From the IMG/VR virus record IMGVR_UViG_2563366883_000015: a stretch of 19,651 bases of DNA. The stretch is one strand, 5' to 3'. Shown one piece after another: positions 3,143 to 19,651 of this stretch (its first letter is position 1; each line of letters starts with the position of its first letter). A program made the translations under genes and the position numbers. Source of the DNA: a virus. Taxonomy: Duplodnaviria; Heunggongvirae; Uroviricota; Caudoviricetes. The notes under the pieces are model-generated. The model had not been told where the DNA came from, searched no databases, and saw only the letters and a program-made list of their open reading frames with translations.

Positions 3143-3436
3143 ATGAAAAAAATGCTACTCGCTACTGCGCTGGCCCTGCTTATTACAGGATGTGCTCAAC
3201 AGACATTTACTGTTCAAAACAAACAGACAGCAGTAGCACCAAAGGAAACCATCACCCATCATTTCTTCGTTTCTGGAATTGGGCAGAAGAAAACTGTCGA
3301 TGCAGCTAAAATTTGTGGCGGCGCAGAAAATGTTGTTAAAACAGAAACCCAGCAAACATTCGTAAATGGATTGCTCGGTTTTATTACTTTAGGCATTTAT
3401 ACTCCGCTGGAAGCGCGTGTGTATTGCTCAAAATAA
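3143..3436 (+). CDS. bor: Bor outer-membrane lipoprotein (serum-resistance lysogenic-conversion protein)
   Basis: 97 aa MKKMLLATALALLITGCAQQTF...YTPLEARVYCSK with lipobox LITGC; recalled as near-identical to lambda Bor. Opposite strand to the lysis genes, as in lambda. Confidence 0.95.
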   Translation: MKKMLLATALALLITGCAQQTFTVQNKQTAVAPKETITHHFFVSGIGQKKTVDAAKICGGAENVVKTETQQTFVNGLLGFITLGIYTPLEARVYCSK

Positions 3437-3467
3437 TTGCATGAGTTGCCCATCGATATGGTCAGCT

Positions 3468-3929
3468 CTATCTGCACTGCTCATTAATATACTTCTGGGT
3501 TCCTTCCAGTTGTTTTTGCATAGTGATCAGCCTCTCTCTGAGGGTGAAATAATCCCGTTCAGCGGTGTCTGCCAGTCGGGGGGAGGCTGCATTATCCACG
3601 CCGGAGGCCGTGGTGGCTTCACGCACTGACTGACAGACTGCTTTGATGTGCAACCGACGACGACCAGCGGCAACATCATCACGCAGAGCATCATTTTCAG
3701 CTTTCGCATCAGCTAACTCCTTCGTGTATTTTGCATCGAGCGCAGCAACATCACGCTGACGCATCTGCATGTCAGTAATTGCCGCGTTCGCTAGCTTCAG
3801 TTCTCTGGCATTTTTGTCGCGCTGGACTTTGTAGGCGATTGCGTTATCACGGTAATGATTGACCGCCCATGACAGGCTGACGATGATGCAGATAATCAGA
3901 GCGGATATAATCGCGGTTACTCTACTCAC
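3468..3929 (-). CDS. rzpD: Rz i-spanin (inner-membrane spanin subunit)
   Basis: Lambda Rz-like sequence ...[29 protein letters not shown]...YINEQCR. Probable GTG start at 3929 (MSRVT...), overlapping the endolysin stop. The ORF track extends to 3941. Confidence 0.9.
3527..3709 (-). CDS. rzoD: Rz1 o-spanin lipoprotein, embedded in the +1 frame of Rz
   Basis: 60 aa [24 protein letters not shown]...[29 protein letters not shown]: lipobox plus Pro-rich tract, fully inside Rz as in lambda. Confidence 0.8.
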
Positions 3930-4423
3930 TGTTGCCCCCACAAACAGACTTCACGCTCAATCTCACGACGAGTCATCAGGCCTTTCCATTGCTTACCGCC
4001 AGCGTATGTCCAGCGACGCAGCTGATCACATGCGCCTTTGATATCGCCCTGGTTTATTTTGCGAAGAAGCGTCGATGTTCTAAAATTGCCAGCACCCACG
4101 TTGTAAACGAATGAGTTAAGAGCGCCGCGCGTTGTTTCCGGTATATCGACTTTGATATACGGGTTAATTTGTCTGGCGACAGTGGCAAGGTCTTTATTCA
4201 AGAGTGCTTTGCATTCTGCTTTGGTATACGTTTTACCGAGCATGATGTCTTTTCCGGTGTGTCCGTGACATACAGTCCATACACCAACAATATCTTTGTA
4301 TGGTATGTAGCTGACACCTTCCAGACCATCGTTACCACTTGGGCCAGTGATTAACACTGATGCTATAGCAATTGCTCCGCCACCAATAGCAGCAGCAACG
4401 GCTTTTCGTAATGATGGAGGCAT
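3926..4423 (-). CDS. rrrD: SAR endolysin (phage lysozyme R, T4-lysozyme-like GH24 with N-terminal signal-anchor-release domain)
   Basis: 165 aa. N-terminal Gly/Ala-rich weakly hydrophobic segment [20 protein letters not shown] (SAR-like) followed by a lysozyme-like region (...[16 protein letters not shown]...). Start ATG overlaps the holin stop. Confidence 0.9.
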
Positions 4424-4638
4424 TATTCACCTCTCGCAGCCTTGCGCTTATCTTCTTTAATCTTGAAATAAAGGTTTGTCAGGTACGTCAGCAGGCCAAA
4501 TACCAGGCTACCCAGCACACCTATTGCTGCCCACTGTGAGGGAGTGACTTTATCGAGCAGCTGTAAAAACCAGTAACCGGCACTACCTGCTGAGGTGCCA
4601 TAGGCGACTCCAGTTGTTAACTTATCCATGAATTTCAT
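4423..4638 (-). CDS. essD: Class II holin (S21-type pinholin) with dual-start motif
   Basis: 71 aa from ATG 4638 ([26 protein letters not shown]...KAARGE), GAGGTGG RBS upstream. M-K-F-M is the antiholin/holin dual-start pattern. The ORF track extends to 4683. Confidence 0.85.
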
Positions 4639-5226
4639 AACCCCACCTCGCAGACAAAGCGGGTGTAAATTGAGGGAATACAACGTATCGCAAAAAAGCA
4701 GAAACGTAACTGACTCCGAGTCAGTGAATAACTCAGGTATTGAGTTATCAGCTAATATCGAGACTCAAAAAATGGAAAAACCAGCTCGACGGCGGGTTTA
4801 AGCTGTGTGACGAAGTAACCACTCTTAACAGCATAACCAATTTTTTACGTACGTAAACCACTGAATGATATTTATGAGAATGCTACCGAGTGTTCAAAAC
4901 ATCACCACAAATACATAAGAAAACTTCAACAAATAACCAATAAATAATTTCCAGTGTTATTTTTAGCTGGTTTAAATTAAACAGACGAATTATAGAACCA
5001 CCATAAATAACAGCCATTAATATAAATTAGCTAATAGATTTATTTTTGTTCAAATAAGAGCCATAAATAGGTTTCGATAGAAAAAGTTCAGATAAAAATA
5101 GAGATCTACTTCACAAATTAAATGAGAAACTAAAACTTACATCTTGAAATAATCACATTGATTAGATGAATATTTATCGCGCAGTGACATCATTTTTTAA
5201 TAATAGTTCAAAAAAAAGGGCTCACG

Positions 5227-6324
5227 ATGAAAAAATTAACAGTGGCAATTTCTGCTGTAGCTGCATCAGTACTGATGGCGATGTCTGCTCAGGCAGCTGA
5301 AATTTATAATAAAGACAGTAACAAGCTGGATCTGTACGGGAAAGTTAATGCCAAGCACTACTTTTCCTCTAACGATGCAGATGATGGTGATACTACTTAT
5401 GTTCGTCTGGGCTTCAAAGGCGAAACCCAAATCAACGATCAGCTGACTGGTTTCGGTCAGTGGGAATATGAATTCAAAGGCAACCGCGCTGAATCTCAAG
5501 GTTCCTCCAAAGACAAAACCCGTCTTGCATTTGCAGGCCTGAAATTCGGTGACTACGGCTCAATCGATTACGGCCGTAACTACGGTGTAGCATACGACAT
5601 CGGTGCGTGGACTGACGTTCTGCCAGAATTCGGTGGCGATACCTGGACCCAAACAGATGTGTTCATGACTGGTCGCACCACTGGTGTTGCAACCTATCGT
5701 AACAACGACTTCTTTGGTCTGGTTGATGGTCTGAACTTTGCTGCTCAGTACCAAGGCAAAAACGATCGTAGCGATTTCGATAACTACACCGAAGGTAACG
5801 GTGATGGCTTCGGTTTCTCTGCTACCTATGAATACGAAGGATTCGGTATCGGTGCAACTTATGCGAAATCTGATCGTACCGACACTCAAGTTAATGCAGG
5901 GAAAGTTCTTCCTGAAGTATTTGCTTCCGGTAAAAATGCAGAAGTTTGGGCCGCAGGTCTGAAATATGACGCTAACAACATTTACCTGGCCACTACCTAT
6001 TCTGAAACCCAGAATATGACTGTATTTGCTGATCACTTCGTTGCTAATAAAGCTCAAAACTTCGAAGCTGTTGCACAATATCAGTTCGATTTCGGTCTGC
6101 GTCCGTCCGTTGCTTACCTGCAATCTAAAGGTAAGGATCTTGGAGTATGGGGCGATCAGGACTTAGTCAAATATGTTGATGTAGGTGCAACCTATTACTT
6201 CAACAAAAATATGTCTACTTTCGTTGATTACAAAATCAACCTGCTTGACAAAAATGACTTCACTAAAGCACTCGGTGTAAGCACTGATGACATCGTTGCT
6301 GTAGGTCTGGTTTACCAGTTCTAA
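5227..6324 (+). CDS. nmpC: Prophage-encoded OmpC/OmpF-family general porin (NmpC/Lc-like)
   Basis: 365 aa with signal peptide [25 protein letters not shown] and porin C-terminus ...VAVGLVYQF. Antisense to the late operon between Q and S, as nmpC is in DLP12. Preceded by ~540 bp of AT-rich DNA. Confidence 0.9.
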
Positions 6325-6332
6325 TCTGATTA

Positions 6333-6374
6333 CGAAAAAGATATGTTGCGGGAGGCGTTGCCTCCCCAACATAT
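6333..6374 (-). terminator. Rho-independent terminator on the minus strand ~140 nt downstream of Q (tR'-like)
   Basis: Minus strand: ATATGTTGGGGAGG-CAACG-CCTCCCGCAACATAT followed by CTTTTTCG. Confidence 0.45.
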
Positions 6375-6451
6375 AAGTGGCTCCCTCAAGCCACTTCCTT
6401 TAGGAGCACAACCTTGCTTCTAACTATATAAACCTTCTGTTATATATTACC

Positions 6452-6487
6452 CTTTATTTTTGGGGGCGTTGCAACGCCCCATTTTTA
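6452..6487 (+). terminator. Rho-independent terminator between the convergent porin and Q genes
   Basis: 18-bp perfect palindrome GGGGCGTTGCAACGCCCC (6463-6480) followed by ATTTTTAAT on the plus strand, preceded by TTTATTTTT. Confidence 0.55.
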
Positions 6488-6513
6488 ATAACTTTCAGTA
6501 AACAATTGGCATA

Positions 6514-6897
6514 TTAATTAGAGTTATTAACAACGATATCCATCTCTAACCGGATATCTAATGCCATTAACATCCCTTCAATTATGCCCTCAGCCTTCTG
6601 TAACCTTTTCCCGATATAACCATCAGAGCAGCAATGCTTACCTGCCAGTGACATGAATGTCATACCGACTACATAATAATCTACTAATAAATCGTGCAAA
6701 TCGCTGTTGTTCTTTTTCAGACGGGCCATGCACCCGCAAATGATCATCGCGTCATCGTCACAACATTGCGGGCGAGATTTTACTTTTGAAGGAATTAATC
6801 CCTTAAAACCGGCGGCAATGGACGACCAGGTCACATCTTCATGATTATTAGCCGCCCACGCTCCCCAACGTTCAAGAACCATCTGAATATCACGCAT
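6514..6897 (-). CDS. quuD: Late-gene antiterminator Q (QuuD / phage 82-21 type)
   Basis: 127 aa from ATG 6897 ([24 protein letters not shown]...), GGAG 7 nt upstream. Cys-rich region [16 protein letters not shown]. Sits immediately upstream of the lysis cassette. Confidence 0.85.
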
Positions 6898-6914
6898 TAA
6901 CTTTCTCCACAAAA

Positions 6915-7910
6915 TTAGGCCAGCACACCAATCGCCAGTGCGCGATCGATAAAACGAAATATCAGCTCCAGCTGGGAGCCATACTTCTCTTCAAATGCCA
7001 CGGTATCCGCATGCAGTTCGTCGTGGTGTTTTCTGCACAAAGGCAGCACAAAAAGGTCATGCGCTTTTGTACCCATTCCACCCTGACCATGGCCTATCAG
7101 ATGATGCGGATCATCAGCTGGCTTTCCACAACATGCACACGGCTGCGTCTTAACCCAGCGCGTGTACTGTTCATTAACCCAGCGACGACGTTTGGGGCGT
7201 AACATAAAAGACTCCGGCGACTCCGGATCCACTTTCAGCGCCAGCACCTTTTTCGCTTTATCCTGGATAATGCTGGTGGCAGGAACCGAAGGCACAAGGT
7301 CACTTTCCCGGGTGACAGACGGCAAAACAGACTTCGGTAATCTCAGTGCCTTACGGGCTGCGCTTTCCGGTAAGGCATCCGCCAGGTCATTACGAACCAG
7401 CCACCAGCACAGTTCCGGCATTGTCACGGCATGGTTATCATTAAAATCGAGATCCCGACGGACTACAGACAACACCCAATGGGCACAGTTATCCGTTGCC
7501 ATTGATTCCAGCCGCTCCGTGAACTGATCACGTAACTGATTATCGCAGTGCCAGCACAGACGGATTGCGCCCGGCGCGTGTCGCATTGTGGTCATGTTCT
7601 CGCTGTGCCAGTCGGAATGAGGCCACTGGCAGCCTTTTTCACGAAGTAACCAGCTTTCAAGACATTCCACCCCACCAGCACGACGAATCACTGCCTCATT
7701 ACGGAACACGGCCCGAACGGCAGGATCATCCGCCAGCGGTTGTGATGCCGCGGGAACGGCACCACTGGCGAAAGATGAATAATGCTCCGGCTCAGGCTCC
7801 AGCAGTACACGCCCCTGCATAAACAGGGGCATCAGCTCTGAACCGGGCCTGAACAATACGATCCCCATACGCGGGGCAATTTCAGGGGTCAGTAGTGCTC
7901 TCACGGTCAC
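6915..7910 (-). CDS. DUF968-family nin-region protein with C-terminal Cys/His (HNH-like) motif
   Basis: 331 aa. C-terminus [43 protein letters not shown]. Apparent GTG start at 7910, 1 nt after the KilA-N stop. Confidence 0.75.
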
Positions 7911-7911
7911 C

Positions 7912-8709
7912 TCAATGAACGGTATCGAGCAGCTTTAACAGCTCAGGGAATCGGGATTCGAAGAAATGCGGCTGCGTCTCGCGCGGATTTGCGGGACTGG
8001 TGATGTTCTTGCCGAACATGCAGCCTTTCGCTGTCAGCGACCAGAATTTTTTGATGTTGTTAATCGCGGTACGGCTGTATCGTTCGCGCTGCTCGACGAT
8101 CCCCAGCTTCACCATCTGGTGATATGCCTGATTAGCTGTCAGGCGGATACCATACTGCTTCAGCAGTGCACTCAGTGACAGCGTGGGACGGCTTGAGCCA
8201 TCAGGCGCGTCAGCAGGAGCATCAATGGCATAGCGCGGTGCCAGATTCGGTAAGCCAACAGCCTCCTGGAGTTTCTGACAGGCACCAAGCACTGAAGAGT
8301 TAGACAGGTTTAACTCCCGGCGCATAAAGTCCAGCAGAATCACGCCAGCCTGCATCTTGTCAGCAGCCTGCCCGGATAATTTTTCCGATGCGCTGGTTAC
8401 CATATCGAAAGTACGGATCACCTTCAGATGGAATGACGGGCTGATCCACATTGCATAGGCATACACCAGTTCTTTGCAGACATACGTCCCCTGGTTATTT
8501 CCGCCACGAATAACGTTAACTGGCTCTATATTGACCGAGTTGCAAATCTGCAACTCGCTTATTAAACGTTCAGTTTGCTCATTGCGGAGCCAGAATGCAG
8601 GCTTATGCTTATCCAGAGAACCGGCAGCCCTGTGCAGATCGTTCAGGCTGTAACGCCCATAAGCATCACGACGAACTTCAATACCATCAATGACCATCAG
8701 ATTATTCAT
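7912..8709 (-). CDS. KilA-N domain protein (Bro/antirepressor-like)
   Basis: N-terminus MNNLMVIDGIEVRRDAYGRYSLNDLHRAAG...KPAFWLRN is KilA-N-like. Start placed at ATG 8709 with AGGAG 9 nt upstream. The ORF track extends to 8742. Confidence 0.75.
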   Translation of the reverse strand: MNNLMVIDGIEVRRDAYGRYSLNDLHRAAGSLDKHKPAFWLRNEQTERLISELQICNSVNIEPVNVIRGGNNQGTYVCKELVYAYAMWISPSFHLKVIRTFDMVTSASEKLSGQAADKMQAGVILLDFMRRELNLSNSSVLGACQKLQEAVGLPNLAPRYAIDAPADAPDGSSRPTLSLSALLKQYGIRLTANQAYHQMVKLGIVEQRERYSRTAINNIKKFWSLTAKGCMFGKNITSPANPRETQPHFFESRFPELLKLLDTVH

Positions 8710-8728
8710 ACTTCGTTTCTCCTCTTGA

Positions 8729-9118
8729 TCAGGCGGCTGCACCCGCCGTTTTCTCGTACTTACTGATAGTGATCTCGACCTTCCCTTCCGGGATAACCGG
8801 TCCCCACTCCACCAGCATTCTTTTCACCTGGCTGTCGTCTTCCCACACACCCGCGTGGGTCAGGGCGTCAAACAGCGCCTTGTTATAGTTGTCCAGATCG
8901 CGGATCCGGTTATCCGGAGGAAACAACACGATCTCCACTGAAGCAGGTGCCGACGTTGGTTTCGGCAGACGACGTAACTGCTCAACTATTGCTGTGCACG
9001 CCGCACTCTGGAATTTTCGCCCCGCCGCGCTTATCAGGCTCTTACCAGCAAATGCCCCTTTGTTGGGGTGTCGCCAGTAGGTGTTCACGCTGGGTGGAAA
9101 AGGCAGAATCAGCTTCAT
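8729..9118 (-). CDS. rusA: RusA-family Holliday junction resolvase
   Basis: 129 aa MKLILPFPPSVNTYWRH...IRDLDNYNKALFDALTHAGVWEDDSQV matches the RusA pattern. Start ATG overlaps the upstream stop (ATGA). Sequence differs from K-12 RusA. Confidence 0.85.
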   Translation of the reverse strand: MKLILPFPPSVNTYWRHPNKGAFAGKSLISAAGRKFQSAACTAIVEQLRRLPKPTSAPASVEIVLFPPDNRIRDLDNYNKALFDALTHAGVWEDDSQVKRMLVEWGPVIPEGKVEITISKYEKTAGAAA

Positions 9119-9441
9119 ACTTTCAGCCCCCTCTCATGTAACCAGTGGGCTGCACGCAGCCTGGCGTTTTCCTCACCAGCAAGCAGTGCGCGGATAATCC
9201 CGGCCACCTCGCTGTCGTCGTCCTTCACCGCGGTATGAAGCGTGATGCCCCGGGCCACGCCACGCTTTATCGTGATGACGCCTTTTTTCTCCAGTGCGCG
9301 AAGATGCTCCACCGCTGCATTCACTGAACGGTATCCCAGCATGGTAGCCACCTCCTGATTGGTTGGCGGGAAGCCACGTTCTTTCTGGTAAGAAATCAGC
9401 ATATCCAGCACCTGCTGCTGGCATTGAGTTAACGTCGTCAT
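9115..9441 (-). CDS. LexA N-terminal DNA-binding-domain protein lacking the S24 peptidase domain
   Basis: 108 aa from ATG 9441: MTTLTQCQQQVLDMLISYQKERGFPPTNQEVATMLGYRSVNAAVEHLRALEKKGVITIKRGVARGITL parallels the LexA winged-helix domain. No Ser/Lys protease region follows. Confidence 0.7.
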   Translation of the reverse strand: MTTLTQCQQQVLDMLISYQKERGFPPTNQEVATMLGYRSVNAAVEHLRALEKKGVITIKRGVARGITLHTAVKDDDSEVAGIIRALLAGEENARLRAAHWLHERGLKV

Positions 9442-9929
9442 TAAGCCCCCACGTAATTCCCTGACAGATACCACTCTTCACCCGATACAGCGCGCTTGCT
9501 GCTTTTCCGTAAACACCGCTCACGACGCGCAAGAAAATTGTTTCGCTCTTGCTGGGAGTGGCTTTCACGGAATGCCGCCATCCACACCGTTGCAGCACGA
9601 CGGTATAAGCCCCTGGACTCCAGTTCTTCCGCCTGGCGGGTCAGGCACAAAATCACCCGGGGATCGTTAGTGCCGACATAGAAATTGCGCACAGGTCTGG
9701 ATTCACGAACTGGTTGCGGTTCCGGCTCCTGCGGTATCTCAGTCAGCCGCGGGAAATGTCTGCGTGTATCCCCTTCACAACGGTGAGCCACACGCCCACT
9801 CTGACGTAACTTGCTTGCTGACTGCAGAACGCGCTGTCGTGAGTAACCTGCAAAAGCATCCGCAATGTCTCCGGAAGTACACCCCGGATGGGCTTCAATG
9901 AATTTCTGAACGTCATTCAAAAGACTCAT
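9441..9929 (-). CDS. Putative transcriptional regulator with C-terminal PerC/Pch-like motif
   Basis: C-terminal segment AEELESRGLYRRAATVWMAAF...NNFLARRERCLRK resembles the PerC-family core; ~90 aa of extra N-terminal sequence. ATG 9929 with AGGGGG upstream. Confidence 0.55.
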   Translation of the reverse strand: MSLLNDVQKFIEAHPGCTSGDIADAFAGYSRQRVLQSASKLRQSGRVAHRCEGDTRRHFPRLTEIPQEPEPQPVRESRPVRNFYVGTNDPRVILCLTRQAEELESRGLYRRAATVWMAAFRESHSQQERNNFLARRERCLRKSSKRAVSGEEWYLSGNYVGA

Positions 9930-9931
9930 GA

Positions 9932-10873
9932 TCACCCCCTGAATCCTGCCGGGATCTGGCTGTAGTCCACGTTGTCGTAACTGGCTTTGAAGTACGGGTC
10001 TTCGCGTTTTTCGGTGTACGTGCTGACGGACGGCGATAAGCGCAGGGAAAGCTCATCCCATTTTTCCCGCAGCTTCGACGGGCTGAGCACGTTACGGCAC
10101 CAGAACGGATCGCGACTGACGCGGCTGTACATCTCGCAGATTTGTTTATGAGTACGACCATCCTGCACACACATCAGGCGAATTTCGTTTGCCCAGGCTG
10201 TCCAGTTCGGTTCTTTGGGACGAACCACCTCGCCGTCACATTCGGCGGCATGCTCGTACAGGGCGATGATTTTTTTCCAGAGCCACTGTGCGCAGGTCAA
10301 ATCATCCTGCGTCCCCCACTGGCGCTTTTTAGGGCTGAATACAACCGCATCAGGATGGCGAGTTAAAAAATCCTGTTCAGCCGTCTGCGTGTCCGGTTGC
10401 GAAGCGTCCGGACGAGAAGTTTTTTTATCTGACGGATCATGTTTTGATTTTACTGACGGATCCCCACCAGATTCTGACGGGTGAAAACCCGCTTTTTTGC
10501 CAGATTTCGACGCATCAAATTTTGACGGGTCAGATTTTGATGCGTCAGATTTTGACGGGTCAGAATCTGACAGTTGAGAAAATGCCGCTGCCTGAAGCTT
10601 CGCAACGTTAAGCTGATAAACATTCGACGCATTGCGGTTACCCTGGCGACGCGCCCTACGCGTTAACCAGCCTTCTGCTTCCAGCCGTGCGATAGCCGTT
10701 CTGACGGTACTCATCCCCGCGCCAATCTGGCGGGCAATGGTTTCAATTGATGGCCAGCACACACCTTCGTCATTACTGAAATCAGCCAGGCGGGCCATAA
10801 TTGCCACGCTGGATAATTTCATGCCTGATGCAGCGCAACCATCCCATACATAGCCGGTTAATTTAGTGCTCAT
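9932..10873 (-). CDS. Phage replication initiator (N-terminal HTH domain, low-complexity linker, conserved phage replication C-terminus)
   Basis: 313 aa. N-terminal winged-HTH-like region ...SIETIARQIGAGMSTVRTAIARLEAEGWL, linker SDSDPSKSDASKSDPSKFDASKS encoded by DNA repeats, Trp/Cys-rich C-terminus. GAGG RBS. Confidence 0.8.
   Translation of the reverse strand: MSTKLTGYVWDGCAASGMKLSSVAIMARLADFSNDEGVCWPSIETIARQIGAGMSTVRTAIARLEAEGWLTRRARRQGNRNASNVYQLNVAKLQAAAFSQLSDSDPSKSDASKSDPSKFDASKSGKKAGFHPSESGGDPSVKSKHDPSDKKTSRPDASQPDTQTAEQDFLTRHPDAVVFSPKKRQWGTQDDLTCAQWLWKKIIALYEHAAECDGEVVRPKEPNWTAWANEIRLMCVQDGRTHKQICEMYSRVSRDPFWCRNVLSPSKLREKWDELSLRLSPSVSTYTEKREDPYFKASYDNVDYSQIPAGFRG
10445..10576. repeat. 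Iteron-like array of ~7 imperfect 15-16-bp direct repeats (consensus approx. CAGATTTTGACGGGT) inside the replication initiator gene; candidate ori
   Basis: Copies at approx. 10445, 10468, 10501, 10517, 10532, 10547 and 10562; the last four are contiguous. Same layout as lambda ori iterons within gene O. Confidence 0.5.
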
Positions 10874-10882
10874 GACCGACCT

Positions 10883-11221
10883 CTATTTCCCTGAATTTAC
10901 GACGAAACTGTTCGAGCGGGCTGAAGCACTCATGCTCATAGCCTTCGCGGAGGTAGATAACACGTTGTGTTTCCGGCTCCCAACGAATGACTCTGACGGG
11001 CACTCCGTAGTGATCTTTGAACCAGCGGTTAACTTGTCGCAAAGGACTGTCTCCTTCTGCCGGTTGAAATCACCCACAGCCCACTCTGCAAAGCTGTGGG
11101 TTACAATTTCCCTGTCACCTGGTACATTTACTGCATAGCAATACTCCACCTTCGCTTTTCCACCCGGTACAGGAAGCGCAATCAGTTGCGAGCGACGGTA
11201 GTGTGTTGTTAAACTGTTCAT
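10883..11221 (-). CDS. Hypothetical early-region protein
   Basis: 112-aa ORF whose start overlaps the upstream gene stop (ATGA coupling). C-terminal third is low-complexity, so it may be frameshifted or shorter. No family recognised. Confidence 0.35.
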
Positions 11222-11769
11222 GCGTTAGTTTCTCCACAGTCACGACACGCCACGGCGCCCGGAGCTGCACACTCGCGGGCGTCACTACTTTCTGAAACGC
11301 AAAAGATTTTGTAGACCAGTGCTGCATGCTCCTGCAGCTTCGAAATTGAGAGGTACAGCTCATCGTTAATTGCTGTCTTCTCATGCGGTTCCACTACACC
11401 GTCTTCAATTGCTGAACGAATCTGTTTTGAATAACTGCCGATCTGTTCAATGACTTCCAGCAGGCGTTGGTTGATATCGGCGTTGTCCACATCCTCGACA
11501 TCAGGAAGAGACACAAAGACGCCATTTGCAGACTGCGCCACAGCGTCAGCAATGAAGTGAGTTCCACCAGCACGTTGCAAAATCATTGCCCATCCCAGCG
11601 GGAAAATCTGATCGCCATCGGCACGAAGGCGGTTAAATAATGCGTTCTCTGTTACATCCAGCCAGTCAGCAGCTTCAGCGTCCCCCCCCGGCAACGCTGC
11701 GATAGTTTTTCTGACAGCTTTCACGTACCACTCAGGCTGTTTTTCTACTTTCCAGTGATGCTTACCCAC
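11218..11769 (-). CDS. Early regulatory protein, CII/YdaT-like (assignment tentative)
   Basis: 183-aa ORF at the position expected for the cII-equivalent upstream of replication genes; Cys cluster at the C-terminus. Family assignment is from memory and tentative. Confidence 0.5.
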
Positions 11770-11881
11770 GGTTCACCTCCTGTTCCTGTGGTTTAAACCC
11801 ATTCTGGTTTTGGCTAGATTGAAAACGTGCCGGATAAAGAATCTGCATTTCGCTGACTTCACCCTTAAAAAAATTGGCTAA

Positions 11882-12238
11882 ACGTTCTGCAAGCTCGATA
11901 GATGGAATCTGCTCCAGCCTCTCATGCCGCAAACCAAGAGCATTGCGGTCAAATGTACGAATGTTGCTGCGCAGGCTTATTTAACAATGCGTCTGGAAGC
12001 CAGTGCCGTTTCTGGTCAGGCGATGGTGTCGGACAATCAGGATTTAGGTTTTATTGTCGCCGATCAGAACGATACGCCGATCACGCCTAACGATCTCAAT
12101 AGCGTTATTCCTTTCCGTCTGGATGCAGCTGCGGCAGCCAATGTCACACTTCGCGCCTGGCCTATCAGTATTACCGGTCAAAAACCGACCGAAGCGCCGT
12201 TTAGCGCGCTGGGGTATTTACGCGTCGATTATCAATGA
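11882..12238 (+). pseudogene. sfmH: sfmH fimbrial adhesin gene, 3' fragment only (5' end replaced by phage DNA)
   Basis: Frame encodes a fimbrial-subunit C-terminal strand (...LGYLRVDYQ) directly upstream of sfmF. In-frame stop at 11879. The N-terminal two thirds of a ~325-aa adhesin are absent. Confidence 0.6.
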
Positions 12239-12248
12239 GGTACGGAGA

Positions 12249-12764
12249 ATGAGAAGAGTATTCTTTAGCTGTTTCTGCGGGTTACTGTGGAGTTCCAGTG
12301 GATGGGCAGCTGACCCTTTAGGAACGATTAATATCAATTTGCACGGTAACGTTGTTGATTTCTCCTGTACCGTAAACACAGCGGATATTGATAAGACGGT
12401 AGATTTAGGCAGATGGCCTACGACACAACTACTGAACGCTGGCGATACCACGGCACTCGTCCCTTTTAGCCTGCGGCTGGAGGGATGTCCTCCGGGTTCA
12501 GTTGCGATTTTATTTACGGGAACGCCGGCATCTGATGCCAACCTGCTGGCTCTGGATGATCCCGCAATGGCACAAACCGTCGCCATCGAATTACGTAATA
12601 GCGATCGCTCCCGGCTCGCACTGGGGGAGGCGAGCCCGACTGAGGAAGTTGATGCAAATGGCAATGTCACACTAAACTTTTTTGCCAATTATCGAGCGTT
12701 AGCCAGCGGTGTTCGGCCAGGTGTGGCGAAAGCGGATGCGATATTTATGATCAATTATAATTAA
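12249..12764 (+). CDS. sfmF: Type 1-like fimbrial minor subunit SfmF
   Basis: 171 aa from ATG 12249 with signal peptide MRRVFFSCFCGLLWSSSGWA/ADP and fimbrial C-terminus; GAGG 8 nt upstream. The ORF track starts further upstream at 12054. Confidence 0.85.
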   Translation: MRRVFFSCFCGLLWSSSGWAADPLGTININLHGNVVDFSCTVNTADIDKTVDLGRWPTTQLLNAGDTTALVPFSLRLEGCPPGSVAILFTGTPASDANLLALDDPAMAQTVAIELRNSDRSRLALGEASPTEEVDANGNVTLNFFANYRALASGVRPGVAKADAIFMINYN

Positions 12765-12766
12765 TA

Positions 12767-13399
12767 TTATATTAATTCATATAATTTGGCGTAGTCGATG
12801 AGCTCTACAATTGAATGCAAACCTAGCTTGCCATAAATATTAGATTTATGCGCGCTAACTGTTTTATTGCTAAGTAATAACTTATCGGCAATTTCTTTAT
12901 TAGATAATCCGCTGACCAGATAACGTAATATCGTCACTTCACGATTAGATAGCACAGTGATCGTTGAACTATTCGTACTACATTTATTGCTTTTTATATA
13001 GTTGAGCGTTTCGCTGGGAAAAAAAGTGTATCCGGAGAGGATCATCTGAACGGCATGAAAAATATCATTCTGATCATTGCATTTACTGACAAAACCGTTA
13101 GCACCAGCTTGTATCGCTCTGCCAGCATAAAAGCATTCTGATTTCGATGATAAAAATAATACTTTCACTGTGCTCTGGATTTGTTTGATCCTTTTCAGGA
13201 AGGTAAAACCGTCTGTTCCGGGCAAGTCTATATCCATAATGATTAAATCAACAGGACGGGTTCGGAGATAATCGATGGTTATGCGGTAATCATCCGTTTT
13301 CAGGACAATCTGCAATTCACTGTTTTTTTGCAACAGAACTTCAATAGACATTCTGATGATAGGATGAGTATCCATAATGATCACCGACGTTGGTTTCAT
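12767..13399 (-). CDS. fimZ: LuxR/NarL-family response regulator FimZ
   Basis: 210 aa from ATG 13399 (MKPTSVIIMDTHPIIRMSIEVLL...): receiver domain plus C-terminal LuxR HTH, in the expected position between sfmF and argU. Confidence 0.9.
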   Translation of the reverse strand: MKPTSVIIMDTHPIIRMSIEVLLQKNSELQIVLKTDDYRITIDYLRTRPVDLIIMDIDLPGTDGFTFLKRIKQIQSTVKVLFLSSKSECFYAGRAIQAGANGFVSKCNDQNDIFHAVQMILSGYTFFPSETLNYIKSNKCSTNSSTITVLSNREVTILRYLVSGLSNKEIADKLLLSNKTVSAHKSNIYGKLGLHSIVELIDYAKLYELI

Positions 13400-13641: not shown

Positions 13642-13718
13642 GCGCCCTTAGCTCAGTTGGATAGAGCAACGACCTTCTAAGTCGTGGGCCGCAGGTTCGA
13701 ATCCTGCAGGGCGCGCCA
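13642..13718 (+). tRNA. argU: tRNA-Arg (anticodon UCU), encoded CCA end; prophage attachment site
   Basis: 77 nt GCGCCCTTAGCTCAGTTGGATAGAGCAACGACCTTCTAAGTCGTGGGCCGCAGGTTCGAATCCTGCAGGGCGCGCCA with clear cloverleaf; anticodon loop CTTCTAA. Confidence 0.95.
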
Positions 13719-13733
13719 TTACAATTCAATCAG

Positions 13734-14897
13734 TTACGCCTTCTTTATATCCTCCATAATTCCAGAGTGGGACATATTTGGGACATTATCACCAAAAATG
13801 TCGTCTATTTTCCTCGCATGCTCTGTCAAATGATTAGGCGCAAGGTGAGCATACCTACGAACCATTTCTATGGACTCCCATCCGCCCATTTCCTGAAGCA
13901 CTGATAATGGGACGCCTGACTGAATCAGCCAGCTTGCCCAGGTGTGTCTGAGGTCATGGAAACGGAAATCTTCAATTCCTGCACGACGACAAGCTGATAG
14001 CCATGATGTCTTGCTGTCGATGCGCATCTTCCTGACCGCAGGCGTTGATGTTCCATCTGCTCGCTTAGCCGCCTTGGTATGTACAAACACCCATTTGTGA
14101 TGCTTGCCTATTTGATCACGCAACACTTTACAGGCGGTATCGTTCAGCGCCACACCAATGGCGCGGTTTGATTTGCTCTCTTCTGGATTCACCCAGGCAA
14201 CTCGTCGCTGCATGTCGATTTGTTGCCATTCCAGATTTATGATGTTCGACTTTCTCAGACCAGTTGCCAGCGCAAACTTGACGACAGATTTCAGTGGTTC
14301 GGGGCACTCATCAATAAGGCGTTTTGCTTCCTCCTTTTCCAGCCATCTGACTCGCTTGTTTCTGACCGCTGGTATCTTGATGACAGGCGCTTTTTCCAGC
14401 CACTTCCAGTCGCGTTCTGCAGCACGGAGAATGGCCTTTATCATGGCAAGATGCTTTGCCTTTGTCTGAGTTGATACTGGCTTTGGTTCATAAACAGGCG
14501 GTTCTTTACCTTTCCTGATGGCGGCCCGAACTTTCTGTTTCCATATTTCTTTCGTCTTTCTGTTATGCATTCTGCTTACAGCAGAGTAAATCTTTGCCTC
14601 CGAGATATCTTTAAGCCTTATACCCTCAAAATGTTCAAGCCAGAACTCAATCCGGCTTTTATCTGAATCGAGAGATTTTTTATCAGCCTTTTCCTCAAGC
14701 CATCTTAGGCAGGCCTCTTCAAAAGTGACATCAGGTAAATCCCCTAGCTTTTCTACTCGCCAGAGTTCTGCTTTTCGCTTGTCGTGCAACTCCTGAGCTT
14801 GCCGCTTGTCCTTTGTGCCAAGAGATTCCTTAATTCGTTTCCCGCCCGGGAGCGAATACGAGGCATACCATATTTCATTTCTGCGGAAGAGTGACAT
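13734..14897 (-). CDS. intD: Tyrosine site-specific integrase (DLP12 IntD-like)
   Basis: 387 aa [35 protein letters not shown]... with catalytic motifs ...HDLRHTWAS... and ...VRRYAHL...; GAGGA RBS. Confidence 0.95.
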
Positions 14898-15124
14898 TTT
14901 CTTTCCTCTGTTATGCCATCACCCGCGCTCACCTGGACAGTATGCAGCGGAGACTGAAGCGCCGCAATGCAGGCTTGCCGTGTTGTGAGGTAAGGAGATT
15001 TTGGCTTGGTTGGATCTTTACGTGTTGCCTGTAGGCGGCCTGTTCGTATCCAGTTGGTGGCGGTTGGTCTGGATATCTGAAGAAACTGACAGGCCTCATC
15101 GAGTGTGAGGCTGTATGGCTCCAT
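14753..15124 (-). CDS. xisD: Excisionase-like (Xis/AlpA-type HTH) protein; true stop may be earlier
   Basis: Start ATG 15124 ([35 protein letters not shown]...). The open frame overlaps the int start by ~145 nt. The ORF track extends upstream to 15208. Confidence 0.55.
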
Positions 15125-15429
15125 TATTTCACCTCTTGCTGTGTCATTGTTGAAAAATGGATAACAGCTCGTTGCTGCCAGACGATCCAACCGAGAGTCA
15201 TATCCCATGCCATGTATTCGTTATCGCCGTTTTTTGCTCTCCGACGATCTACTAAGTCACCGAAACGCTTTTCCATGAATAATTCATAGGCTTCGCGTTC
15301 ATCTGGCTCTACTTCCAGAGATACGAGTGCGATTTCATAAGCACGGCGCTCAATATCGTCTCGAACCTCTAGGCTGCTGATTCGTTCTTTGATTTCTTTA
15401 ATCAGTTCTTTATTGGTAAATGTGGTCAT
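15124..15429 (-). CDS. yfdT: Small early-left protein, YfdT-like
   Basis: 101-aa ORF MTTFTNKELIKEIKERISSLEVRDD..., translationally coupled to the upstream gene (TAATG). Length and position match my recollection of the yfdP-Q-R-S-T cluster. Confidence 0.5.
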   Translation of the reverse strand: MTTFTNKELIKEIKERISSLEVRDDIERRAYEIALVSLEVEPDEREAYELFMEKRFGDLVDRRRAKNGDNEYMAWDMTLGWIVWQQRAVIHFSTMTQQEVK

Positions 15430-15791
15430 TATGCTCCAGCCTCCGGTGCTTTTGGCATTACTGCCCAGTGAGTGATATTGACGTTTTCAAGGTCCCCGAC
15501 CTGAAATGTCCACTGCCATTCTCCGGTTTCTTTTTGTCCCCAGGTGTACCAGAGAGAACGCCAGCCAATCAGCCAGCCTTCTCCGTTAGCATCAAATAAC
15601 AGAACACTTTCATTTGCTGGTGGCAGTTCAGCTGACACTGGTATTATTTTGTTTTCCAGTGCCGCACATTTAGCTTCAAGCGCGTCGAATTTACGTAACA
15701 GGTACTCAGCATTTGTTTCATTCACTTTCAGATCTCGCGGTACACATTTCCCGCGAAGAAACCCTTCCATTTCGAAAACATTCATGCGCAT
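15429..15791 (-). CDS. yfdS: Early-left protein, YfdS-like (Trp-rich C-terminus, possibly DUF551-like)
   Basis: 120 aa MRMNVFEMEGFLRGK...WLIGWRSLWYTWGQKETGEWQWTF...ITHWAVMP; GGAG 9 nt upstream of ATG 15791. Confidence 0.55.
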   Translation of the reverse strand: MRMNVFEMEGFLRGKCVPRDLKVNETNAEYLLRKFDALEAKCAALENKIIPVSAELPPANESVLLFDANGEGWLIGWRSLWYTWGQKETGEWQWTFQVGDLENVNITHWAVMPKAPEAGA

Positions 15792-16318
15792 TTGCGTAAC
15801 TCCGATAAATCGTTAAAACGTTCCATAAACATCCCGTAGGCATGACCCGGTGCCAGTGGAATCACGTTGAACATCTCTGTTGCCGGGATGCCTTCCAGTA
15901 CAGGCCAGAAAGAGCCATCATCAAGCCCGAGATCGCGGCGTTCGGTTGCCAGCATGATGAGATCGGCATATTTCACGGGTGTACTCATAACTGGGGGTAA
16001 CCCGTATTTCTCACGGATTACGGCGTCTATTTTTTCTTCCATCCGTTTATAGTCAGGAAGAAGGCGTTTCAGTGGTGCGGGAATGTCCTGGCAATACGCT
16101 TCTGTTGCATCATGCATTAACGCTTCAAAAGCAAATTCCTGCGGCACCAGCTGGCTGCAAAGAACCGCATGTTGGGCGACGCTGTAGAAGTGCGAAAGAT
16201 GACCGGCAAAGCGACAGATATTTGAAAGGGAAACCGCGATATCGTTAATATCGATGTCGTCTTTATTTATCTTGTCATAATAAAAATGCTTCCCGGAAAA
16301 AGTTTTAATAAATGACAT
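15782..16318 (-). CDS. yfdR: HD-domain phosphohydrolase (YfdR-like)
   Basis: 178 aa from ATG 16318 (MSFIKTFSGKHFYYDKINKDD...). HD motifs ...VAQHAV... and ...LMHDATEAY...; GGAGAA RBS. The ORF track extends to 16345. Confidence 0.8.
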   Translation of the reverse strand: MSFIKTFSGKHFYYDKINKDDIDINDIAVSLSNICRFAGHLSHFYSVAQHAVLCSQLVPQEFAFEALMHDATEAYCQDIPAPLKRLLPDYKRMEEKIDAVIREKYGLPPVMSTPVKYADLIMLATERRDLGLDDGSFWPVLEGIPATEMFNVIPLAPGHAYGMFMERFNDLSELRKCA

Positions 16319-16411
16319 TTTGTTCTCCACGTATATGCACTGCACCGCGCTGAATTCTGGTAAAAGGAAGCCCTCACCATCCGGTGATTATTGAGTTAAT
16401 TACGTTTCCAT

Positions 16412-16433
16412 AAATGCCCCCGCAGGGGCATTT
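16412..16433 (-). terminator. GC-rich hairpin downstream of yfdQ (weak terminator candidate)
   Basis: AAATGCCCC-CGCA-GGGGCATTT perfect 9-bp stem 13 nt after the yfdQ stop; only a weak T-run follows. Confidence 0.3.
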
Positions 16434-16445
16434 GCAGTAATGAAA

Positions 16446-17270
16446 TCAGGCGGTGAAAGTACCAATAAAGGTTTCTACTTTGCTGTCTTTGAATTTCTCA
16501 ACAAGCAGATCACGAAATTCGTTAGCCATTTCTTCCTGCACCGCTTCCAGCTGAATAATGCGCAGAACCAGTACAGGACGATCGCCAGTGATAATGCTGA
16601 GGCGTAATTTAAACGGACGTTCTTTCAGACCTTCAAACGGAACGCATTTAAATTCAAATGCCACTGGCATAATGTCTTTGGTCTTCGCTTCGACAGACTC
16701 CATCAGGGAGCGTTTGCCGCTGAAGTCATTATCTTCAAAATCAGCGGTCTGGTTTGCTTCAATCGTGATTTTACGGACTGCCGCAGCCGCTTTTGTTGCT
16801 TGAATGGCGTCACCATTAGCATCAAAGCCCACAAGGTAGTCGGCCCAGTCTTCGATCCATTCTGCCAGTGACTTCTGGGAGTTACGCTCGCCGTTAACAG
16901 ACAACAGAGCAGAGAACGGTGCTGTCTTTTTCAGTTTGAGAGTGGCAGTGTTATCTGCGTGACCTGGTTCATCAATAGTACCCAGGTTAAGCACACTGAC
17001 GGCTCGCATATTATCGGCATCGATAAAGCAGCGGGTGCCTTCATCTGCAAGATCTTTAGAATAACGGGTAAAGTCATCGATGCTGGCAGTGGAAAGCGCA
17101 CCACGGAAACGGAAGCGATTTAAATTAAATTTTTCCAGATCATGAATGCGGAAATTCTCAGGCAATGCCACAGCATCGGCACCAATCTTACTGATAATTT
17201 CATTAACACCCTGAGCAGAAATAAGGGCATGGATTTGATTAATTGCGGTTGCGTCTAAGTTCTGAGACAT
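16446..17270 (-). CDS. yfdQ: YfdQ-like prophage protein (DUF2303-like)
   Basis: 274 aa [30 protein letters not shown]... with GTGAGGA RBS; ordered yfdP-yfdQ-yfdR as in the CPS-53 cluster. Confidence 0.75.
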
Positions 17271-17335
17271 AATAAGTCCTCACTATATAAAAATATTCAG
17301 TGATGAGAGAAATAATCAGTTTATTAAAAACGATA

Positions 17336-17698
17336 TTAATGACCTGCTGCGCGGAGTTTTCCGTCAGGTTCACCGGCAAGAGTCAGTAATTGTCCCTGGT
17401 CTTCCTGCAGAATAGTCAGGCGACCACCGCGATTGACATACATCGGCGTTTCGGTGGTGTCTTCTTCGGAAATTTTCCCGCGGTTAGTTGGGCGAACATA
17501 TGAGAGTTTGTGTTTGATTTTCACACGGTTCTCATCAAACGGTTCGATTTCCAGATTGAGTGAGACCTTCCCTTTGGTTTTCGTGTTCATCACACCGGAA
17601 GCGACCTCACTGAGAACTGCGCCGATTTTGGTTTCAAATACGCCGCCGTCCAGCTCCCCGATAAATGCCTGCACATCAGTACTGCGTTCGCTAGCCAT
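17336..17698 (-). CDS. yfdP: YfdP-like prophage protein
   Basis: 120 aa from ATG 17698 (MASERSTDVQAFIGELDGGVFETKIG...) with GAGGAG 7 nt upstream. The ORF track extends upstream to 17863 into GC-rich non-coding sequence. Confidence 0.6.
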   Translation of the reverse strand: MASERSTDVQAFIGELDGGVFETKIGAVLSEVASGVMNTKTKGKVSLNLEIEPFDENRVKIKHKLSYVRPTNRGKISEEDTTETPMYVNRGGRLTILQEDQGQLLTLAGEPDGKLRAAGH

Positions 17699-17739
17699 TT
17701 TGCTGCTCCTCATCATATCGACCCTGCAAGGTCGGTTGG

Positions 17740-18100
17740 TTTCTCCACAAAACAGAGAAGAACACCTGCGGTGGCAGCCGCCCGGATGGATTGGGTTATG
17801 AGCCCGTCGTCCGGTGATGCTCTTCTCTGTTTTGCAAAAAAGGACGGTACCAGCCGGAAGCAAGGGTACAAACTGGTACCGCCAGGACTACACACAGCAT
17901 AAAGTTGTGGTGCCGGGTGCCTCCCGGTGCCTGGCGAAGGTTGCACACCAGGCGGGTGGGTATCCACAGAAGGTCGACTGTCAGCCTCAACCTTAACCCG
18001 CGTGCGCTGAGCCGCATTCACCACAACGCTAAGGATTCTCTCTGGTTGAAAATACTTAGCTGTTATGTGCCTGCTTTTAGCCACATCAGGCGAGGTGGAC
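17740..18100. other. GC-rich, hairpin-dense non-coding block (candidate structured RNA or regulatory leader)
   Basis: No ORF with an RBS or sensible composition. 14-bp perfect stem CAAAACAGAGAAGA (17748-17761) / TCTTCTCTGTTTTG (17821-17834); 9-bp stem CGGTACCAG (17845-17853) / CTGGTACCG (17873-17881); further short stems. Confidence 0.35.
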
Positions 18101-18168
18101 CTGGTTATTCCCCAACAACAAGGATTCGGTTAATCTGGATATCCCCAACAACAATAAGAGTATTCAAT
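18101..18168 (+). repeat. Two tandem 34-bp imperfect direct repeats (core CTGGWTAT(T)CCCCAACAACAA) ending at the start of the downstream ORF
   Basis: R1 18101-18134 CTGGTTATTCCCCAACAACAAGGATTCGGTTAAT; R2 18135-18168 CTGGATATCCCCAACAACAATAAGAGTATTCAAT. An AGGATTC...CTGG motif also occurs at 18032-18047. Confidence 0.6.
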
Positions 18169-18684
18169 GTGATCGCTGAATTAACGGCAGCAATGACGGC
18201 TATTCGTGAAACAGCCCAGATTGCAAAACTAATGAACGAGGCAAAAACTCAAGCTGAAGTAAATGCGGCTATTGGTGAGCTGAACTCAAAGCTTGCGTCT
18301 ATTCAGCGCGAATGCGTGTCTCTCGTTGAACTGGTGGGCTCTTATCAAGAAATAAATGCTTCTCTCAAAGCTAAAATTGCAGAATTCGAAAACTTTGAGG
18401 CTCAGACGGAAGGCTATATCCTTAACCAACTTGAGTCGGGTACTTTTGTATACTCGAAGGAGGTAATCGTGAACGGTGGCAGCATAACCATGCATCTTTG
18501 CCCAAAATGTTTTGGACAAAAGATAGTATCGATACTTCAACCATTCCCGGTTAGCGAAGATGAGCTTTTTCATAAAAGCAGGTGCCTCCACTGTGAAAAT
18601 AAGTTTCTGATGAATAAAAATCCGGATTACGTATCGCCTCCATCCATTGAGGAGTTGTCCAGAAAACTTAACGGCAATCTGTAG
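18169..18684 (+). CDS. Hypothetical protein with N-terminal coiled-coil-like region and C-terminal CxxC...CxHC zinc-ribbon-like motif
   Basis: Frame open from GTG 18169 (AAGAG upstream) or ATG 18193 (MTAIRETAQIAKLMNEAKTQAEV...); stop TAG 18682-18684. Motif HLCPKCFGQK...(21 aa)...CLHCENKF. Convergent with cI. No family recognised. Confidence 0.5.
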   Translation: MIAELTAAMTAIRETAQIAKLMNEAKTQAEVNAAIGELNSKLASIQRECVSLVELVGSYQEINASLKAKIAEFENFEAQTEGYILNQLESGTFVYSKEVIVNGGSITMHLCPKCFGQKIVSILQPFPVSEDELFHKSRCLHCENKFLMNKNPDYVSPPSIEELSRKLNGNL

Positions 18685-19003: not shown

Positions 19004-19651
19004 TTAATTATGTCTCTTAAGGGTTTGCGACTGACTGATTAAGACCTTTCCAAAGACCATGAATCGGTGTTCGTTTTCGCTAGTAATTCCCCATTCACGG
19101 TAAATCTGGTTATCAGAAATCACCAGCAGTTTGTCAGGAATCATTTGAAGTCTTTTAACGTATATTTTGTCATCAAAACCAAAGACATATATACCATCAC
19201 CATCAAACTGATTGATGCTGACATCAACGAAGATGAGATCTCCTGGCTCAATGGTTGGACACATACTGTCCCCACGAACGTTGATAACTTTGATGTGATT
19301 GGCTGGTCGTCCGCCGAACATTGATACAGCATTATCAGTTCTGTATTCGATGGCATGAATCACATCAATGACATCACCGCCCTGGATAAGGCCATTTCCC
19401 GCACTGGCACTGATATCCAGCATTTCAATACGGAACACATCCTTCACCTGCGCAACATCCTCATTATTACTGTTTTTATATACAGTATTACTTTTGTGGG
19501 CAGAGGTAAAGAGATCAGCAATATCAACACCTAAGCTCTTGGCAATATTACTCAGTGTTTGTTCGGTAAATTGTTTTTGCTTACCCGTTTCTAAGCGCGA
19601 GATGTTCGCCGCATCTACTCCTATTGCTTCAGCGAGATCGGCGATTTTCAT
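19004..19651 (-). CDS. CI-type prophage repressor (HTH plus LexA-like S24 autopeptidase domain); N-terminus probably beyond the window edge
   Basis: HTH segment IADLAEAIGVDAANISRLETGK; Ala-Gly cleavage site in SASAGNG; S24 motifs VRGDSMCPTIEPGDLIFVD and YVKRL. The frame reaches the window end, and the HTH appears to lack its first helix. Confidence 0.85.
   Translation of the reverse strand: MKIADLAEAIGVDAANISRLETGKQKQFTEQTLSNIAKSLGVDIADLFTSAHKSNTVYKNSNNEDVAQVKDVFRIEMLDISASAGNGLIQGGDVIDVIHAIEYRTDNAVSMFGGRPANHIKVINVRGDSMCPTIEPGDLIFVDVSINQFDGDGIYVFGFDDKIYVKRLQMIPDKLLVISDNQIYREWGITSENEHRFMVFGKVLISQSQTLKRHN

Follow-up and report, generated by a model that had tools for sequence, protein, structure and literature searches.

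The window analysed here, that is, the whole 19,651-nt stretch of the virus record IMGVR_UViG_2563366883_000015, holds an island of host genes (the 3′ part of sfmH, sfmF, fimZ and argU) set between two blocks of lambdoid phage genes (Table 1). The left block is oriented opposite to the integrase-bearing block at argU, as the original prediction, made from the letters of the window, had correctly noted. Besides the cII-like gene, it encodes a 112-aa ORF product, an O-like replication protein, PerC, LexA_DNA_bind, RusA, KilA-N, DUF968/HNH and Q, as well as a porin, a holin, a lysozyme, Rz and Bor, with the porin and Bor genes on the plus strand. Near the left end of the window, an ORF in which Nu1 is fused to tail-fibre sequence lies in the context tfa-ybcY-tfaX-ompT. 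The right block begins at argU with the integrase gene and an excisionase-like gene, continues with early-left accessory genes (101-aa and 120-aa ORFs, an HD-hydrolase-like ORF, DUF2303/YfdQ, YfdP and a plus-strand 171-aa ORF) and is cut by the window end within a cI-type repressor gene, whose full 230-aa form extends 45 nt further.

Table 1. Features of the 19,651-nt window, from left to right
Feature	Position	Strand	Basis
Nu1′-′tail-fibre fusion ORF, 187 aa	639..1202	-	Pfam Nu1 at residues 1-38 plus tail-fibre repeat
Remaining early-right and late-regulatory arm	3143..11221	- (porin and Bor, +)
cII-like gene (Phage_CP76/YmfL), first intact gene of the early-right operon	11218..11769	-
cro′ remnant, SfII-type, 3′ 163 nt (codons 34-86 and stop)	11762..11924	-	Base-level alignment
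J1 crossover, TCA	11922..11924	n/a	cro homology (reverse complement) stops at 11924, sfmH homology begins at 11922
sfmH′ remnant, nt 692-1008 (residues 231-335, last 105 codons)	11922..12238	+	99.9% identical to E. coli sfmH
sfmF, intact, severed from the sfmA-C-D-H′ part of the operon	12249..12764	+	Sequence comparison
fimZ, response regulator, intact, within the inverted segment	12767..13399	-	Sequence comparison
argU, tRNA-Arg(UCU), prophage integration target	13642..13718	+
attL core (GGTTCGAATCCTGCAGGGCGCGCCATT), argU 3′ end, at least 27 nt	13694..13720	+	Repeated at both ends of phage PhiR29_1
Integrase, 387 aa, directly after argU	13734..14897	-	PF00589; 99% identical to the PhiR29_1 integrase region
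Excisionase-like HTH_17 protein	14753..15124	-	Domain match
Early-left (PL-side) accessory genes	15124..18684	mixed	Related contigs, PhiR29_1
cI-type repressor (HTH and S24 peptidase), 3′ 648 nt	19004..19651	-

Three further observations concern the phage blocks themselves. The cargo gene for an NmpC/OmpD-type porin (5227-6324, plus strand) lies between Q and the holin gene and is preceded by an AT-rich stretch at 4800-5200 (GC content of about 0.28); the look-up of the exact 365-aa porin was uninformative, the protein being too common, with 17,393 assembly-collection blocks, far above every other prophage gene looked up. In the right block, the stretch at 17700-18170 (GC content of about 0.56), between the YfdP-like gene and the plus-strand 171-aa ORF, contained no called gene in any related contig, showed only overlapping, spurious-looking ORFs and gave no Rfam match. 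Finally, a full-length match to Rfam IS009 (225.8 bits) was observed at 98-296 on the minus strand, inside the tail-fibre assembly gene at 55-639.

The abrupt meeting of an inverted phage early region with a 5′-truncated sfmH, the central claim of the original prediction, proved to be real when aligned at the base level, with minus-strand lambdoid early-right genes directly abutting the sfmH remnant. In a megablast search against 5,426 complete E. coli genomes, the region 11200-12800 matched solely from 11922 rightwards, over the 3′ part of sfmH, sfmF and fimZ, with identities of up to 99.9%. Conversely, matches of the region 9000-11950 to phage records stopped at 11924; these were to Shigella phage SfII and its relatives (about 97% identity) and covered the O-like replication gene, the YmfL/cII-like gene and cro, and according to the SfII annotation they terminate within cro and not past cII. 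The junction, hereafter J1, is located at 11922-11924, where a trinucleotide TCA is common to cro (as reverse complement) and sfmH. Alignment against reference loci and lambdoid phages, the check that had been proposed, hence gave the exact breakpoint, some 50-140 nt to the right of the 11.78-11.88 kb initially envisaged. It also corrected the view that the phage block ends with the cII-like gene and lacks cro, since a cro remnant corresponding to SfII cro nt 99-261 with two mismatches sits between cII and sfmH′; the estimate of about 110 remaining sfmH codons was close, although the remnant comprises the last 105. At the junction, a specific SfmH′ ORF of 104 aa arises, with its ATG at 11924. 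Both breaks fall within protein domains, at residue 231 of SfmH, within the C-terminal pilin domain (PF00419, Fimbrial, residues 187-335 of the intact protein), and at codon 33/34 of Cro, within its HTH domain (HTH_3, residues 5-56 of the intact protein).

Extended contigs carrying J1, L003 and L004 among them, were retrieved by exact look-up of the 104-aa SfmH′ ORF. Four independent assemblies from different samples, with 0-32 mismatches to the window, contained a second junction, J2, together with J1: L003 (NCBI GCA_026280245.1; 4 mismatches in 17.7 kb), L004 (a SPAdes-style ENA contig; 32 mismatches), L011 (a 5.15-Mb scaffold, GCA_000351025.1; 100% match over 18,434 nt, which makes it the probable source or a clone-mate) and L037 (a 3.6-Mb ENA metagenome contig, in which J1, J2 and the left-end features lie on one piece). 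Beyond the right end of the window, these near-identical contigs continue with the rest of cI, the operator region and cro nt 1-101, and then change over to sfmH nt 694-1 on the minus strand, followed by the usher gene sfmD. J2 lies at the window-equivalent position 19892-19894, 241 nt past the right end of the window, and shares a TGA that is complementary to the TCA of J1. When the halves of J1 and J2 were rejoined in silico, a 1008-nt sfmH, differing from a reference at a single nucleotide, and a 261-nt cro encoding a protein identical to SfII Cro were obtained, with zero bases lost or gained and without any indel.

Look-up of the cII-like and O-like proteins brought up both configurations of the locus. 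Besides the inverted L011 and L037, seven un-inverted loci were found (L005, L006, L007, L009, L010, L013 and L040), in which the order is sfmD-sfmH(335 aa)-sfmF-fimZ-argU-int...cI(230 aa)-cro(86 aa)-cII-O...Q-porin-lysis-Bor. Three of them, L005, L013 and L040, showed 99.7-99.9% identity with the window to the left and right of J1, and with respect to all seven the collinearity of the window switched strand exactly at 11922-11924. Every retrieved locus was also searched with 41-mers representing J1, J2 and the two intact sites: each of the four J1 loci contained J2 and neither intact site, and none of the retrieved loci combined a junction with an intact site.

The locus shows two novel junctions on the same molecule that join the halves of two genes in inverted order, both split genes are restored by re-inversion in silico, and close relatives keep the un-inverted arrangement. 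On these grounds, we consider it highly probable (about 0.93) that J1 marks one of the two ends of an inversion of approximately 7.97 kb, a single event that was both conservative and reciprocal. As read from the contigs, the inverted segment would comprise sfmH′(3′)-sfmF-fimZ-argU-attL-int-xis-like-early-left-cI-cro′(5′). The inverted state is probably the derived one, as parsimony suggests from the intact genes and the widespread un-inverted order, along with the absence of J1 from all 5,426 complete genomes.

Within the window alone, J1 resembles a deletion scar, with a truncated cro-side arm set against a truncated sfmH, and it could be taken for what is left after the cro-cI-int-att arm of a prophage upstream of sfm, sfmA/C/D and most of sfmH had disappeared, with two separate lambdoid elements remaining at either side of the island. 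However, the parts that would have been deleted (the cro 5′ end, cI, int, attL, the sfmH 5′ part and sfmD) all sit about 8 kb rightward, in inverted order, on the same contigs; J2 was found, and the early-left and early-right arms are contiguous in relatives 99.7-99.9% identical. Since the halves at J1 and J2 rebuild sfmH and cro exactly, a deletion is ruled out, and we give it practically no weight. Most of what had been reported as missing was hence located: the repressor, integrase and att all lie inside the window, in the same prophage but on the other side of the host island (Table 1), and the 5′ part of sfmH and sfmD follow just past its right end on the same contigs.

An assembly artefact, in the form of a chimeric contig join at a repeat, was likewise rejected. 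Misjoins are a familiar problem with lambdoid prophages, and the junction occurs in no complete RefSeq E. coli genome, but the two sides have just 3 nt in common, which leaves no repeat that could be collapsed; both junctions recur in four independently made assemblies, including the 3.6-Mb metagenome contig and the 5.15-Mb scaffold, and the junction-specific 104-aa ORF was recorded on 82 contigs. We regard a misassembly as extremely improbable. Among the three origins initially put forward for the junction (a deletion, an inversion or an assembly join), it is the inversion that stands, on the basis of J2 and the exact rebuilding of both genes.

With regard to the prophage, the two lambdoid segments of the original prediction turned out to be halves of one argU prophage. 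Both blocks are best read as the arms of a single DLP12-family prophage in argU and not as two phages, because they are contiguous in the un-inverted relatives that are 99.7-99.9% identical; the possibility of two separate prophages was rejected on the same grounds. The integrase gene adjoins argU, the att core duplicates the 3′ end of this tRNA gene, and the same core is present at attR in L016 and at both PhiR29_1 ends; likewise, the right arm has the DLP12-family order Q-porin-lysis-Bor-YbcV-YbcW-Nu1 ... ompT. In the related contigs L016, L017 and L020, the attR core is found about 4.3 kb left of the window and on the strand opposite to attL, and the two sites thus now form inverted repeats.

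The DLP12 prophage of E. coli K-12 and PhiR29_1 (PV340556.1), a 46-kb, active DLP12 relative, are similarly integrated at the 3′ end of argU by fimZ, where the integrase gene adjoins that of the tRNA. They also share with the prophage described here a right arm with Q, an NmpC/OmpD-type porin, holin-lysozyme-Rz, Bor, YbcV, YbcW and Nu1, and a far end that carries ybcY, ompT and tail-fibre remnants. The arm from int to the early-left genes is 99% identical to that of PhiR29_1, whereas the immunity region (cI and cro) is of the SfII type. In contrast to both elements, the segment inverted here comprises the attL-to-cro′ arm and the host genes sfmH′-sfmF-fimZ-argU. DLP12 of K-12 is collinear and is disrupted instead by IS elements.

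The same prophage bears a second lesion. The Nu1′-′tail-fibre fusion marks a large deletion of head and tail genes, and every placeable contig with this fusion belongs to the inversion lineage; L040, the sole near un-inverted relative that reaches that far, has an intact Nu1 and gpA. As regards the features of a functional prophage, cro is split, the att sites are mutually inverted and the head and tail genes are deleted. In L018, from the likely source strain (15320-17914 of scaffold KB732454.1, some 4 kb to the left of the window), IS1 and ADH/esterase genes, which look frmA/frmB-like, directly follow ompT, and the attR core, envY, ybcH and nfrA, all kept in the lineage contigs L016, L017 and L020, are absent; this looks like a further, IS1-associated rearrangement.

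As to how the inversion may have arisen, the ancestor would have carried sfmA-C-D-H-F, fimZ and argU in the order common in E. coli, with a DLP12-family lambdoid prophage (attL-int-xis-early-left-cI-cro-cII-O...Q-porin-lysis-Bor...) after argU. The DNA would have been broken at two points, between nt 691 and 695 of sfmH and between nt 98 and 102 of cro, and the segment between them would have been re-ligated in reverse, the exchange taking place at the trinucleotide TCA/TGA that sfmH and cro have in common in inverted orientation.

In E. coli genomes, inversions most often result from RecA-dependent homologous recombination between inverted repeats, either IS copies or duplicated phage modules, and prophage- and IS-mediated inversions, for example those involving lambdoid prophages in E. 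coli O157, arise in this way. In these cases, too, a prophage-bounded chromosomal segment is flipped and a prophage rearranged. Here, however, the segment measures only 8 kb, and the breakpoints lie in a host gene and a unique phage gene that have 3 nt in common and no repeat. At the corresponding positions of the un-inverted L005 (1876 and 9846), neither an IS element nor a bracketing pair of inverted repeats was found. For the 121-nt breakpoint flanks, the alignment score was reached in 436 of 1000 shuffles and hence did not stand out from shuffled sequence, and the best local alignment between them was an 11-nt stretch, out of register. A repeat-mediated inversion, for which inverted repeats of tens to thousands of nucleotides would be expected at the breakpoints, was rejected, and we attach a negligible probability to it.

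A catalysed inversion at cryptic sites, brought about by the tyrosine integrase of the prophage or by DNA gyrase subunit exchange, would agree well with the fact that neither junction loses or gains a base, and an int gene and a xis-like gene do lie inside the inverted segment. Nevertheless, no dyad or inverted-repeat structure was seen at the breakpoints, their flanks showed no apparent likeness to the 27-47-nt att core (scores of 6-10, in a comparison made without a shuffle control), and one orientation only was observed in the lineage; we therefore hold this route to be unlikely. Nor was a site-specific invertible switch supported: no conserved inverted sites bracket the segment, and the att-core comparison just mentioned, with its lack of a shuffle control, gave no such site either. 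Programmed switches such as fimS, with FimB/FimE, or the Hin/Gin/Pin systems share with the present case the inversion of a short segment that borders a fimbrial operon and contains a tyrosine recombinase gene. They differ in their flanking inverted repeats and promoter-switch logic, which the locus lacks; here, both flanking genes are destroyed, and the inverted form was the sole orientation seen among the contigs of the inversion lineage.

Since neither a longer homology nor an IS element or a recombinase site was found at the breakpoints, the inversion most probably arose by illegitimate recombination, independent of RecA and of specific sites, which may have been homology-independent or microhomology-assisted. 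The use of the 3-nt microhomology is only suggestive, because about 5% of random joins would show a 3-nt junction ambiguity by chance. Illegitimate recombination based on short or no homology has been described in E. coli, as in aberrant lambda excision and gyrase-associated events. The present inversion resembles these events in its 3-nt microhomology, in the absence of a recombinase site and in having one partner in a lambdoid prophage. In contrast, their classical products are deletions or specialised transducing phages, and here a conservative reciprocal inversion has become fixed in a natural lineage. A perfectly conservative reciprocal exchange is also somewhat unusual for break-and-rejoin repair.

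Concerning its distribution, the truncated SfmH′ protein bears the name SfmH in E. coli KTE112 and KTE193. J1 was present in none of the 5,426 complete RefSeq E. coli genomes, in no GTDB species representative and in no JGI metagenome contig, and for this reason the inversion appears to mark a minor lineage. A literature search returned no report of this inversion. Within the lineage, the otherwise near-identical contig L016 shows about 70 mismatches in the DUF968/HNH gene (window 7009-7993), and 25 of the mismatches of L004 are clustered in the early-left genes (window 14826-16530). Both SNP clusters look like gene-conversion patches acquired from other lambdoid prophages after the inversion.

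Other contigs with the same argU prophage were damaged independently. In L014 (2459-3700), the entire sfm operon and fimZ are absent and folD adjoins the argU/int region, and in L038 (690-4128), an IS66 element truncates the integrase gene. Given this independent damage, the boundary between sfm, argU and the prophage seems prone to structural change.

The inversion splits SfmH and Cro and severs sfmF from the sfm operon. The cI gene, the operator region and a 33-codon cro stub now face antisense into sfmH′-sfmD, and the cII-O-Q-lysis genes are cut off from the cI-proximal control region. Judging from gene order, the presumed rightward early promoter PR would be separated from the replication and late genes. 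A consensus promoter scan did not detect PR, and the promoter and terminator scans lent no support for or against PR or read-through from fimZ. In terms of phenotype, the prophage is probably no longer able to excise or to start lytic growth, and it would keep cI immunity and its cargo genes (porin, Bor and OmpT), and the Sfm fimbriae are predicted to lose their adhesin. More speculatively, the putative PR may read antisense into sfmH′-sfmD, and transcription from fimZ may read into cII-O, no terminator being predicted between them.

An adaptive rewiring of the locus, as opposed to neutral decay, seems to us distinctly improbable, and the same holds for the related idea that the prophage integrase, acting on two cryptic sites, produced the base-perfect reciprocity. 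If the rewiring were adaptive, a cargo prophage (NmpC-type porin, Bor and OmpT) would be permanently anchored with its cI immunity kept, an SOS-derepressible PR would be aimed antisense into sfmH′-sfmD-sfmC-sfmA, and cII-O-Q-porin-lysis would stand downstream of fimZ, coupling phage expression to fimbrial regulation. If the integrase had acted on cryptic sites, this would represent an unrecognised route to prophage grounding.

Under the favoured reading, a single reciprocal inversion, the rearrangement is an ordinary, strain-specific one, a new instance of illegitimate inversion and prophage grounding and no new kind of system. What appeared to be a deletion or a pair of prophages is resolved into one event, both junctions of which are defined to the base, and it provides a clear natural case of a non-homologous, base-perfect reciprocal inversion. 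For genome annotation it carries a warning, as prophage-finding programs would present this locus as two partial prophages with a truncated fimbrial operon. For the biology of KTE112/KTE193-like E. coli, in which the inversion is a useful lineage marker, one single event would have both inactivated the chaperone-usher adhesin gene sfmH and disabled a lambdoid prophage.
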